This document shows, one piece after another, positions 54,833-56,213 of a DNA stretch of 64,000 nucleotides. The DNA is from an uncultured SAR86 cluster bacterium (GTDB lineage Bacteria; Pseudomonadota; Gammaproteobacteria; Magnimaribacterales; AG-339-G14), in assembly GCA_902526045.1 (NCBI GenBank), contig CABZJI010000002.1:78503-142502 (forward strand), in the 5' to 3' direction. Both the position numbers and the translations under genes were made by a program. Under the pieces are notes generated by a model, which was not told where the DNA came from, ran no database searches, and saw only the letters and a program-made list of their open reading frames with translations. Within the stretch, counting starts at the first letter, position 1. Every line of letters starts with the position of its first letter.

Positions 54833-54866
54833 GCGGGCATCATATAATGACTATTAATTCAGCCTT
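54833..54866 (+). repeat. Degenerate copy of the 5' half of tRNA-Gly(TCC) (att-like direct repeat)
   Basis: gcgggcatcatataatgactattaattcagcctt versus tRNA 56139-56172 gcgggcatggtataatggctattacttcagcctt: 30/34 identical; the match stops in the anticodon loop. Confidence 0.9.
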
Positions 54867-54943
54867 AAAAGTTAAATCAATCCCCTGAAACCTCATAAAT
54901 AAGCATTCTTTTTCTGTCTGCTTGCTGTCTAATTAATACCTAT

Positions 54944-54972
54944 TTGAGAAATGATTGATGATTTATTATTAT
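54944..54972 (+). promoter_or_regulatory. Sigma70-type promoter for a leaderless transcript
   Basis: TTGAGA-17 nt-TATTAT-6 nt-ATG (54979). Confidence 0.65.
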
Positions 54973-54978
54973 CATCTG

Positions 54979-55191
54979 ATGAAAAAAATAATTTCATTCA
55001 CTTTTGTTACTTTTCTCGTTTCATGCGGCGGTAGCTCAAGTTCATCTGAACCTATCCAACAAAACAACATAGAAACCAATACACAGACCAATACTCAAAC
55101 TAATACACAAACTGAAACTGAAACTGAAACCGAAGAAGTGATAAAAGCTAATTTTGGTGAGGTTAAATTCGGTGAAGCTAAATTTGAATAG
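54979..55191 (+). CDS. Small lipoprotein with Thr-rich linker and C-terminal FGExK repeats
   Basis: MKKIISFTFVTFLVSC-GGSSSS lipobox, (TNTQ)3(TE)4 linker, ends ANFGEVKFGEAKFE. Confidence 0.8.
   Translation: MKKIISFTFVTFLVSCGGSSSSSEPIQQNNIETNTQTNTQTNTQTETETETEEVIKANFGEVKFGEAKFE
55075..55134 (+). repeat. Coding tandem repeats (12-nt x3, then 6-nt actgaa x4)
   Basis: accaatacacag/accaatactcaa/actaatacacaa followed by actgaa actgaa actgaa accgaa. Confidence 0.85.
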
Positions 55192-55200
55192 GAGATAACT

Positions 55201-56073
55201 ATGAGATTACTAACTATATTTTGTTTACTTTTTTCCTTTGGATTAACGGCAAAGGACTATAAATCGTTACAACGTTTAAACGAAGGTGATGTTATTTCTG
55301 CTGAAGTCTTTAACGACATGATGGATAGGATTGAATTAACTTTAAAAAATATAACTGAGAAAGACTTGATGGGAACTTGGGATTTGGTTCAAACTGTTTG
55401 TATCAGCGGCGTTCCTGGAAATTGTTCTCAGGGAAGTACACTAACAGGAAGACTTGACCCAATTGATGGTCTTTATTCTCAAAGATTAGATACGATAAAT
55501 TTCACTGATGATGGAGATGGAACATATTCTTTCCAACAAACTAACTATTGTTCTTTAACTAGAGGCGGGGATGTAAATGCTCCTTGCAACAAAAACTTTG
55601 CAATTGTCGACGGAAGAATAATCTTTCCTTCAGAAGGAAATTTAAGTGCTGCATACAATATGAAAAAAATTAGTAACAGTAGAATATTAATTTCAGAATA
55701 CTTTAATGGTTCTGCATCTTTTAATATTATTCGTCTAGATAAAAAAAATCTTCCACCCGAGCCACCTGCAAACTTATCTGTAACAAATTCTTCAGGAACC
55801 ATATCGCTTTCGTGGGATGCAGTGGACGTTGAAGAGACTGTTCTTGTTGATGGGACAACTTTTGTATCACAATCTGAAGGTGCCGCTAGTTCATATAAGA
55901 TTCAGTCTAAAGATGCAGCCCTTGGCACGTATACTGAGTTAGCAGCAGCTACATCGAATTCCTACACTGATACTATTCCGTCTGGCACCACTCGTTGGTA
56001 TCGTGTTTATGCTGTTAACGAATACGGAACCAGCAAAGGTTCTAATGTCGTGAGCATTAGTTATTCAGAATAG
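55201..56073 (+). CDS. Secreted protein with C-terminal fibronectin type III domain
   Basis: AGGAG RBS, signal peptide, N-terminal GDVISAEVFNDMMDRIE, central LMGTWDL; FN3 pattern PPANLSVT...LSWDAV...YTDT...YRVYAVNEYG. Confidence 0.82.
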   Translation: MRLLTIFCLLFSFGLTAKDYKSLQRLNEGDVISAEVFNDMMDRIELTLKNITEKDLMGTWDLVQTVCISGVPGNCSQGSTLTGRLDPIDGLYSQRLDTINFTDDGDGTYSFQQTNYCSLTRGGDVNAPCNKNFAIVDGRIIFPSEGNLSAAYNMKKISNSRILISEYFNGSASFNIIRLDKKNLPPEPPANLSVTNSSGTISLSWDAVDVEETVLVDGTTFVSQSEGAASSYKIQSKDAALGTYTELAAATSNSYTDTIPSGTTRWYRVYAVNEYGTSKGSNVVSISYSE

Positions 56074-56138
56074 AATAATTATGTTTTAATGGCGTCAAAT
56101 TTATATTTGGCTTAAAGTCTATATAAAAATCAATAGTT

Positions 56139-56213
56139 GCGGGCATGGTATAATGGCTATTACTTCAGCCTTCCAAGCTGACGATGCGGGTTCGATTCCC
56201 GCTGCCCGCTCCA
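56139..56213 (+). tRNA. tRNA-Gly(TCC)
   Basis: GCGGGCA/TGCCCGC acceptor stem, tcagc-ctTCCaa-gctga anticodon arm, GGTTCGATTC, T-CCA end. Confidence 0.98.

Follow-up and report, generated by a model that had tools for sequence, protein, structure and literature searches.

A 1.3-kb integrase-less cassette bordered by a relic of the tRNA-Gly front half in a SAR86 genome

How did a copy of the front half of a transfer RNA (tRNA) gene come to lie 1.3 kb upstream of the complete gene, with two protein-coding genes between the copies? The question is raised by a small islet at positions 54833 to 56213 of a stretch of 64,000 nucleotides (nt) from an uncultured SAR86 cluster bacterium (assembly GCA_902526045.1, contig CABZJI010000002.1). 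This whole stretch is called the window, and window coordinates are used unless a contig is named. The genome that carries it, G000, comprises 1.2 Mb in 13 contigs and is 93% complete; other G-numbers denote relative genomes, L-numbers loci or contigs, and X-numbers metagenomes. To our knowledge, streamlined ocean bacteria possess almost no classical mobile elements, yet hold large flexible gene pools; for the movement of cassettes in such bacteria, this locus offers a small, fully bounded example. The 34-nt repeat at its left end is almost certainly a real relic of the tRNA-Gly front half, still seated on its original promoter, with a block of 1.3 kb lying at the anticodon. We are equally confident of what the block holds, namely its own promoter, a lipoprotein gene, a hypervariable gene with a fibronectin type III (Fn3) domain, a new 65-nt leader and a new front half of the tRNA; since positions 1-34 arrived with the block, the tRNA remained intact. 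The parts of the islet, from left to right, are the following.

54733 to 54832, plus strand: old promoter and leader of tRNA-Gly (100 nt), stranded upstream of the scar; recognized by homology to the empty alleles.
54833 to 54866, plus strand: scar, a copy of tRNA-Gly positions 1-34 (30/34) that ends at the first anticodon base; alignment and genome scan.
54865 to 54883, plus strand: junction filler, sharing TT with the scar end; a 17/19 inverted copy of 55328-55346.
54867 to 54978, plus strand: islet-specific non-coding stretch of 112 nt, with CTGTCT at 54914 and 54925 and the cassette promoter.
54979 to 55191, plus strand: cargo1, a predicted lipoprotein of 70 amino acids (aa); open reading frame (ORF), lipobox LVSC.
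55201 to 56073, plus strand: cargo2, a predicted secreted protein of 290 aa; ORF, signal peptide, Fn3.
56074 to 56138, plus strand: new 65-nt leader and promoter region of the intact tRNA, with no relation to its predecessor; allele comparison.
56139 to 56213, plus strand: intact tRNA-Gly(TCC); ARAGORN, and Rfam with 67.7 bits.

An earlier reading of the window, made from its letters alone (the sequence-only reading), had described a 30/34 match that ends inside the anticodon loop, with the copies 1.3 kb apart and two cargo genes between them, and this description was confirmed in each particular. The two copies (54833-54866 and 56139-56172) lie on the same strand at a distance of 1306 nt, with cargo1 and cargo2 between them, and the changes from tRNA to scar are G9>C, G10>A, G18>A and C25>A. 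None of 100 dinucleotide shuffles of the window gave a match at three mismatches or fewer. On both strands of the whole 1.2-Mb assembly the scar is the sole non-tRNA site with at least 25/34 matches, and it was the only partial tRNA copy at E<=0.05 when the 33 t(m)RNAs of G000 were tested. The islet displays a direct repeat of a tRNA segment at both of its ends, as integrase-made tRNA islands do. Identity stops at U34, within the anticodon loop, which the Rfam alignment places at positions 32-38; past position 34 the copies agree at 5/10 positions and then at background level. A repeat finder extends the scar repeat to 39 nt at 85%. Comparison of 54867-54960 with the 3' half of the tRNA and its downstream sequence gave a local score of 17, against a shuffle mean of 18.3, and in the 60 nt that precede them the two copies share no more than background similarity (18/60). 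Since the repeat has sharp ends and no tRNA lies beyond it, the scar represents half a gene and not a decayed whole gene. It has no match to the Rfam tRNA model even at E<=10, and no secondary structure was detected (z-scores of +0.44 for the scar, -0.32 for 54860-54960 and -1.12 for the leader). The scar is a useless, decaying relic.

These observations bear directly on the view that the scar is the pseudogene of a tandemly duplicated, complete tRNA-Gly gene, with two genes inserted later between the copies. Three of the four scar differences run from G or C to A (3/4, not 4/4, toward A/T), as decay in an AT-rich genome would have it. A whole-tRNA pseudogene was nevertheless rejected on the loss of similarity beyond positions 34-39 and on the unrelated upstream regions; together with the missing Rfam match, and with the finding that the genuine old promoter precedes the scar and unrelated DNA precedes the intact copy, where a tandem duplicate would show the opposite, this makes such an origin highly improbable.

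The islet is not an assembly artefact, because contigs of four metagenome studies span the scar and the left junction with 0-6 differences (X1 54716-56122; X2 54646-55190; X4 54750-55104; X6 54783-54933), where one of the four runs may be the source sample. The public runs in which the window stretch was found are marine or seawater metagenomes. The contigs of the four runs, which drop rare variants, showed neither an empty allele of this species nor a joint skipping 54867-56172.

What the site looked like before the block arrived can be read from its relatives. Forty of them were searched with window positions 53400-57400 and the resulting loci were mapped, which gave 12 congeneric loci covering the site; further comparisons were made with 50 genomes of the family and 251 genomes of the order. 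The site is flanked by the following genes.

53497 to 54105, minus strand: par1, lipoprotein-like gene of 202 aa, the left flank, conserved in those congeners whose retrieved locus includes it; ORF, 86-88% nucleotide identity in 11 congeneric loci.
54121 to 54732, minus strand: par2, a tandem paralogue of par1 (203 aa, about 50% amino acid identity); ORF, synteny.
56223 to 57359, plus strand: bla, a beta-lactamase-family serine hydrolase, the right flank; PF00144, E 8.6e-50.

Nine of the 12 congeneric loci are empty, with both cargo genes absent. In five of them (G010, G001, G014, G004, G012) the left match runs to exactly 54866 and the right one starts at 56139, with an overlap of exactly 34 nt, and the order is par1-par2-tRNA with nothing between; in the other four (G009, G002, G011, G006) it is par1-tRNA, par2 also being absent. 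The DNA immediately upstream of the intact tRNA is, in 9/9 empty alleles, 83.5-88.5% identical to 54733-54832 over 79-93 nt, and the 65-nt leader is absent from all nine. The empty alleles carry GTGTATAAT 15 nt before the tRNA, which reads AGTATAAAA in the stranded copy of G000, and TGTATAAT precedes tRNA-Gly in 7/9 loci from three other genera. Because the intact tRNA of the empty alleles directly follows the homologue of 54733-54832, the old promoter stayed with the scar. The rare 5'-side geometry suggested by the sequence-only reading, in which incoming DNA supplied a new promoter and 5' half and left the old half behind, is therefore borne out by the relatives. The tRNA itself is invariant, with 75/75 identity in 10/11 other loci of the genus in which it is present and 8/9 loci of other genera, the two deviating copies among those aligned being in G014 and G018; the bla gene begins nine bases past it, and this synteny holds in the genus as well as in other genera, in which the cassette is absent from the tRNA-Gly locus.

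On the left side of the site, par1 and par2 belong to a lipoprotein-like family of roughly 200 aa without a Pfam match (par1 itself has no Pfam family). The presence of par2 in six of the 12 genus loci (G010, G001, G014, G004, G012, G000; absent from G009, G002, G011, G006, G005, G007) is independent of the cassette. In metagenome X4, contigs over 54300-54748 that are 94-95% identical to par2 are covered more than 10x as deeply as the contig with the scar and break off at 54748; it seems that a close relative of higher abundance diverges at this point, just inside the old promoter region.

Within the block, the cassette promoter TTGAGA-17-TATTAT at 54944-54972 is the best sigma-70-like site of the region (10/12), and cargo1 most likely starts at the ATG at 54979 rather than at the TTG at 54955. 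No consensus promoter was found within the new leader 56074-56138, and no terminator-like site was seen between cargo2 and the tRNA; the tRNA may be co-transcribed with the cassette from 54944-54972. The assembly of G000 contains 32 tRNA genes (ARAGORN; 93% complete), of which a single one is a tRNA-Gly (TCC), without GCC or CCC species; a second tRNA-Gly gene may be unassembled, and otherwise the tRNA on the islet side is the sole tRNA-Gly of the cell. The islet displays no anomaly in base composition, and 54867-54978 has no homologue in the 49 other family genomes, where only noise matches were obtained. Candidate origins for the two non-coding parts were tried and rejected: the stretch 54867-54978 is not a diverged par upstream region (p 0.2-0.76 against 7 targets), and the new leader resembles neither the scar, as a further decayed copy would, nor a piece of the tRNA (p 0.11 and 0.65), nor is it the tRNA-Gly promoter of another genus (best p 0.035 for G021 in 9 tests, not significant after correction).

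The cassette is not restricted to G000. It was found before tRNA-Gly in G005, G007 and L062, in each case without any tRNA fragment; the contig of G007 ends inside cargo2, and L062, the one contig returned by a scan of metagenome contigs for the leader-tRNA joint, is 1256 nt long with the left gene beyond its end. In these scar-less alleles the upstream region of par1 reaches TTGAGAAGT, about 55 nt before the old tRNA start, and is followed by the cassette. In G000, TTGAGAAGT is located in the old promoter region, and TTGAGAAAT, its second copy, precedes the ATG of cargo1 by 26 nt; this 26-nt spacing is the same in G007 and L062, which have TTGAGAA.T-N26-ATG in common with G000. As TTGAGAA(G/A)T occurs twice in G000 and as a single joint in G005, G007 and L062, the scar-less alleles are read as the product of a deletion of about 166 nt, which would have run from the scar-bearing to the scar-less form. 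In G005 the start codon of cargo1 was lost (L002, about 1460-1500), where ATGAGAAAT of L062 is changed to TTAGAAAT, and this cargo1 may be a pseudogene or use a rare start codon.

Sequence conservation along the cassette is strikingly uneven. The last 58 nt of the leader (56081-56138) are identical in L062 (58/58) and nearly so in G005 (57/58; 64/65 over all 65 nt), and at the left border 55155-55214 matches G005 at 59/60 and L062 at 52/59 positions, whereas the bla flank beyond the tRNA shows 84-88% identity across alleles. Such a near-identical leader across species, next to a flank of 84-88%, argues for recent exchange. The middle of cargo2, on the contrary, has 40-75% nucleotide identity with G005 and is unalignable with L062, and the cargo2 proteins at the tRNA-Gly site are 71% (G005) and 33% (L062) identical to that of G000. 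Divergent cargo2 alleles are thus held between borders that are more conserved than the bla flank, the pattern of a replacement locus. Four allele types were seen (empty with the two paralogues, empty with one, cassette without scar, and cassette with scar), and there is every reason to regard the tRNA-Gly site as a small flexible locus of at least four allele types, in which an Fn3 gene is exchanged between conserved ends. The comparison of relatives proposed by the sequence-only reading thus gave both empty alleles (nine) and variant cargo2 (G005 and L062). Because empty alleles and cargo2 variation exist, the two genes are not core genes of all relatives, nor is the fragment a tandem duplication without cargo variation, the two outcomes that would have spoken against an islet.

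The distribution of the cassette could also be explained if it were ancestral in the genus, the empty alleles being secondary deletions between the 34-nt repeats and the scar an old local duplication. The flank trees (bla, 11 rows; par1, 12 rows; hupE, 7 rows) place the cassette-bearing G000 and G007 deepest and G005 as sister to one empty group, so that two losses fit the pattern as well as several gains; the scar with its four changes and the degraded old -10 box would suit an old event, and a 34-nt repeat would delete precisely. These trees are, however, trees of local flanks, midpoint-rooted, for lineages that recombine. The origin of the duplication is left unexplained, other genera have tRNA-Gly without a cassette, and the leader (57-58/58, against 84-88% for the bla flank) argues for recent exchange over old vertical descent. 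Nor can the scar-less alleles yield empty ones by deletion, because they are missing 46 nt of old promoter that are present in the empty alleles. We therefore consider an ancestral cassette improbable.

The exchanged gene, cargo2, encodes a protein whose signal peptide is followed by a beta-rich N-terminal domain, which is hypervariable, and by an Fn3 domain at the C-terminus. An AlphaFold (AF2) model built from 44 sequences has a mean pLDDT of 83.9, and residues of about 183-290 adopt an Fn3 fold in it (VIA-align Z 13.8, rmsd 1.4 over 86 residues against 7jgu_A; Foldseek match 4u3h, TMt 0.74). The cargo2 sequence does not reach the Pfam fn3 family, which is precomputed for 4/87 of its homologue clusters; all 87 clusters are unnamed or 'hypothetical', two of them having TARA or GOS ocean-survey names. 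A search of viral contigs with cargo2 gave only 4 generic Fn3 matches (34% over 67 residues), and one of genome contigs gave only two unrelated Fn3 matches. Cargo1 contains a T/Q/N repeat and a conserved C-terminus, EVIKANFGEVKFGEAKFE, and has no Pfam family above threshold. Judged from the alleles, cargo2 is a swappable, hypervariable, predicted secreted protein between conserved borders. The idea of a swappable surface-antigen cassette, put forward in the sequence-only reading, therefore holds for the swapping, as seen in the 71% and 33% alleles; the surface antigen is a candidate role suggested by the signal peptide, the lipobox partner and the variability.

Does the same module occur elsewhere, and does it reveal how it travels? 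Searching the 50 family genomes with cargo2 gave matches in 14, and the mapped loci fall into three contexts, namely the tRNA-Gly site, a site between a POT-type transporter gene and dapD (both labels read from the sequences, not from a family search), and the tRNA-Phe gene. The closest relatives outside the tRNA-Gly site are located at POT-dapD (G003, 69%; G002, 64%), where paralogues of 28-33% were found in G011, G008, G010, G012 and G013. The POT-dapD site is empty in G000, G015, G001, G004, G014, G009, G005 and G007, and in G006 as far as the contig reaches; of the 16 genus genomes, 7 have it filled and 8-9 have it empty (loci G000:C1:484986-485158 (L092, empty), L027, L028, L031, L032, L034, L035 and L045). 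Six occupied alleles have coverage on either side, and in 5/6 of them the 12-nt repeat GAGT(G/A)AAACTTT, with variants, flanks the module; the empty site has one copy. The left repeat lies where the POT stop codon overlaps the lipoprotein start (ATGA), which suggests translational coupling, and the right repeat lies at the cargo2 stop codon. No overlap was seen in G003.

At the tRNA-Phe site, a lipoprotein gene and a cargo2-like gene lie between an intact tRNA-Phe(GAA) and a 46-nt copy of its positions 31-76, 100% identical, in G024, G013 and G005, and none of these three cassettes contains an integrase; the cargo2 of G024, a member of another genus, has about 52-56% identity. The 46-mer is found, with three mismatches or fewer, in 198/251 genomes of the order, and in 2-3 copies on one strand, 0.7-9.5 kb apart, in 53/251 by our own count, including 7/16 of the genus. 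G000 holds a single 46-mer, and its tRNA-Phe (G000:C1:262008-262083) is an empty site. Throughout the order, tRNA-Phe(GAA) serves as a hotspot of additive integration, with cassettes of very different content between the repeats: the twelve islands whose cargo was read (loci examined: L094-L105, L029, L030 and L040) carry the Fn3 module, a cassette of four genes that include one for a small regulator-like protein, methylase-like genes, large helicase- or restriction-like ORFs and an HNH-HIT protein (Pfam), most of these labels being our reading of the sequences. Recombinases were found in 2/12 islands, one of 461 aa in G003 (PF00589, 69 bits), located 124 nt from the distal repeat of an 8.5-kb island, and one of 382 aa in G004 with integrase SAM-like domains only. 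The attachment (att) copies are accompanied by pairs of direct repeats of 7-9 nt, 11 nt apart and 27-48 nt downstream, often with an inverted third copy; each cassette type has its own pair (e.g., GTGAACC, GGTGAACAG, TTGTCCCC and TATGAACAC), and GTGTTAA/TTAACAC is common to the Fn3 cassettes and the G004 recombinase cassette. These pairs look like arm-type binding sites. The tRNA-Phe island belongs to a known and ordinary kind of additive island, driven by integrases, in which the Fn3 module rides integrase-less.

With this in hand, the origin of the tRNA-Gly islet can be addressed. No integrase was found in the islet by ORF and Pfam analysis, as the sequence-only reading had stated. The whole of G000 has only 2 PF00589 matches, both Xer-like and of about 300 aa (serine recombinases were not searched for), and the 50 family genomes have 1-3 each, mostly Xer-like proteins of about 300 aa plus a few fragments at contig ends. 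Three longer integrase-like ORFs occur among them, in G003 (the tRNA-Phe island), G041 and G047, and no tRNA was present in the DNA fetched around the latter two. A tyrosine integrase specific for tRNA-Gly was found neither in the islet nor in G000 or the 50 family genomes. Among the IMG/VR viral contigs, none carried the 34-mer of the tRNA 5' half, the 37-mer of its 3' half, or the CTGTCT stretch, so that the search of genome and viromes around the 34-mer, which the sequence-only reading had proposed, brought no integrase to light.

We tentatively favour a single insertion by host recombination in this lineage, anchored on the invariant tRNA, rather than the action of a tRNA-Gly integrase. 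Foreign DNA in the order cassette-leader-tRNA would have recombined through the tRNA, which is 75/75 identical where the flanks differ by at least 12%, either as a circle by a Campbell-type crossover in the 34-nt homology or as a linear fragment with one homologous end (homology-facilitated illegitimate recombination). The other end would have been closed by an illegitimate joint within the anticodon loop, a short templated filler being added. Later, homologous exchange between lineages would have moved and reshuffled the cassette, and the deletion from TTGAGAA(G/A)T to TTGAGAA(G/A)T would have removed the scar in the other cassette alleles. As regards the illegitimate route, Touzain et al. 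(2010) list de Vries and Wackernagel (2002) as well as Prudhomme et al. (2002) among their references.

The junction itself speaks for this reading. Its 19 nt at 54865-54883 are, at 17/19 positions, the reverse complement of 55328-55346 in the cargo2 Fn3 gene, a region coding for a conserved N-terminal helix; 0/2000 shuffles reached 17/19, this is the sole match of at least 17/19 in the whole genome, and it could not be extended into a longer inverted copy of the cassette. A templated filler of 19 nt and a 2-nt overlap (TT) at the break point to an illegitimate joint and not to a conservative crossover, and the tRNA, being identical across genera, is a plausible anchor; the donor sequence was not found in the 49 other family genomes.

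Several observations weigh against such an origin. The 19-mer was chosen post hoc by a repeat finder, which makes its p-value post hoc as well, and we weighted it moderately. The break falls in the 7-nt anticodon loop, for which the chance within the tRNA is about 1 in 10. The lipoprotein and Fn3 cassettes at tRNA-Phe are likewise integrase-less, with 46-nt repeats that begin at position 31, so the cargo travels by site-specific integration elsewhere, and integrases are present in the gene pool of the genus. The non-coding DNA around the repeat (65 + 34 + 112 nt) is attP-sized, and it contains two 6-nt repeats at the 11-nt spacing of the tRNA-Phe arms. Finally, a donor of the scar-less type should have supplied sequence like 54867-54943, for which no donor was found and which shows no significant likeness to the upstream region of the known alleles (p 0.2-0.76).

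Much of this would be expected if the block had been an integrase-less satellite circle, with leader, tRNA-Gly positions 1-34 and arm as its attP, inserted by a tyrosine integrase acting in trans from a phage, a vesicle-borne element or a lost neighbour, as the mirror image of the tRNA-Phe cassettes. The anticodon loop, in which the boundary lies at U34, is a classic crossover place of tyrosine integrases, and the relatives provide an exact, attB-like empty site with its breakpoint at the repeat (nine alleles, five with the exact 34-nt overlap). The layout of repeat, non-coding stretch, lipoprotein gene, Fn3 gene and repeat parallels that of the relatives of the cargo between tRNA-Phe and its identical 46-nt repeat in G024, G013 and G005, in a hotspot where 53/251 genomes have at least two repeats and 2/12 islands have recombinases. 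The two CTGTCT copies show a spacing of 11 nt at a distance of 48 nt from the scar, compared with 27-48 nt for the tRNA-Phe arms; they are short and have no inverted third copy. The suggestion of the sequence-only reading that tgtct repeats near this place are arm-type sites hence gains from their likeness to the tRNA-Phe arms and loses from the fact that the pair could be due to chance (p of about 0.07 by our own estimate). Integration upstream of a tRNA gene also has a precedent in the Klebsiella arg2 islands (bioRxiv 10.1101/2020.11.02.365908).

Against an integrase acting in trans, the junction is unique: the tRNA-Gly 5'-half pattern is held by 39/251 genomes of the order, and only G000 has it twice. 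The three other cassette-bearing alleles (G005, G007 and L062) are scar-less, the scar is the sole partial tRNA copy in G000, the 50 family genomes provided no integrase of this specificity, the viral contigs carried neither the tRNA halves nor the arm, and an inverted filler occupies the junction. The islet does not have the GTGTTAA arm motif of the tRNA-Phe cassettes, and 54867-54978 was rejected as an arm region of that kind (p 0.05-0.18). The stretch after the scar is no hybrid att site of a tRNA-Gly 5' half and another 3' half either (54867-54930 against 32 tRNA 3' halves, best p 0.16), and such an element would have needed a working tRNA promoter. The tyrosine-integrase crossover proposed by the sequence-only reading thus lacks support, and insertion in trans is conceivable but, to our mind, somewhat less likely than host recombination. 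The broader proposition, that integrase-less lipoprotein and Fn3 cassettes of about 1.2-1.3 kb move in trans between tRNA anticodon-loop sites of the order, at tRNA-Phe on the 3' side and at tRNA-Gly in mirror image on the 5' side, seems unlikely; if it were true, tRNA expression would depend on a swappable surface gene and would possibly be co-transcribed with it.

Whichever route was taken, the junction preserves a fossil record of a single insertion. If the host's recombination is the true cause, invariant tRNA genes would serve as homology anchors for the capture of genes across species without an integrase; if an integrase is, the locus would be a rare mirror-image attachment site at which mobile DNA supplies the promoter of a tRNA. 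Either way, the hypervariable Fn3 protein is a candidate for surface variation driven by phages or grazers.

Integrase-less derivatives of tyrosine-integrase tRNA islands are known as 'cis-mobilisable elements'. With tRNA islands and these derivatives the islet has in common the direct repeat of a partial tRNA, an end in the anticodon loop, an empty site, accessory surface cargo and the lack of an integrase. It differs in that the repeat is the 5' half and the insert lies upstream, where it must bring a promoter, and in having no matching integrase anywhere searched, a presence in one species, a junction with filler, and the lack of a conserved arm motif. Tycheposon islands are described as leaving degenerate remnants in which tRNAs are partial (bioRxiv 10.1101/2020.12.28.424599), a model that the tRNA-Phe hotspot resembles. 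The Klebsiella arg2 islands, which are located upstream of tRNA-Arg with an att site of 5' acceptor stem, D-stem and D-loop (bioRxiv 10.1101/2020.11.02.365908), likewise show the rare upstream arrangement with a duplicated 5' part of the tRNA. They have their own integrase (clade I.d), occur in many genomes and cross over in the D-loop, whereas the islet has no integrase, is single and breaks in the anticodon loop.

Among pelagic bacteria with small genomes, the Methylophilaceae fGI-2 is an additive island with repeats of the last 20 nt of tRNA-Lys (PMC10872708). It resembles the tRNA-Phe hotspot, and both share with the islet the small, mostly integrase-less cassettes between tRNA-derived repeats; both lie downstream of a tRNA 3' end, as arrays and in many genomes, in contrast to the 5' half, single and unique, of the tRNA-Gly islet. 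The same source describes replacement-type flexible islands, in which hypervariable surface genes are swapped by homologous recombination in conserved flanks (PMC10872708). The cargo2 alleles of 33-71%, whose borders (cargo1 to the left, the leader with the tRNA to the right) are nearly identical, are comparable to these islands, with the differences that one gene and not a glycosylation island is involved, that the cassette can be present or absent, and that it occupies two further loci.

Touzain et al. (2010) report that RNA genes are enriched after variable segments and that 10-18% of the segments are flanked by repeats (PMC2884548); the islet is, like the segments described there, small, variable and upstream of an RNA gene. 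With homology-facilitated illegitimate recombination, as outlined in the same paper (PMC2884548), it would have in common one homologous anchor and one illegitimate joint with a TT overlap and filler. The joint of the islet differs in lying in the functionally special anticodon loop, and the mechanism is only proposed here. tRNA-bounded islets, integrase-less cassettes and hypervariable surface genes are thus each already known, whereas this locus is unusual in its 5' geometry, where the tRNA promoter was replaced and an integrase is lacking, in its four allele states, and in a module found at three kinds of site.

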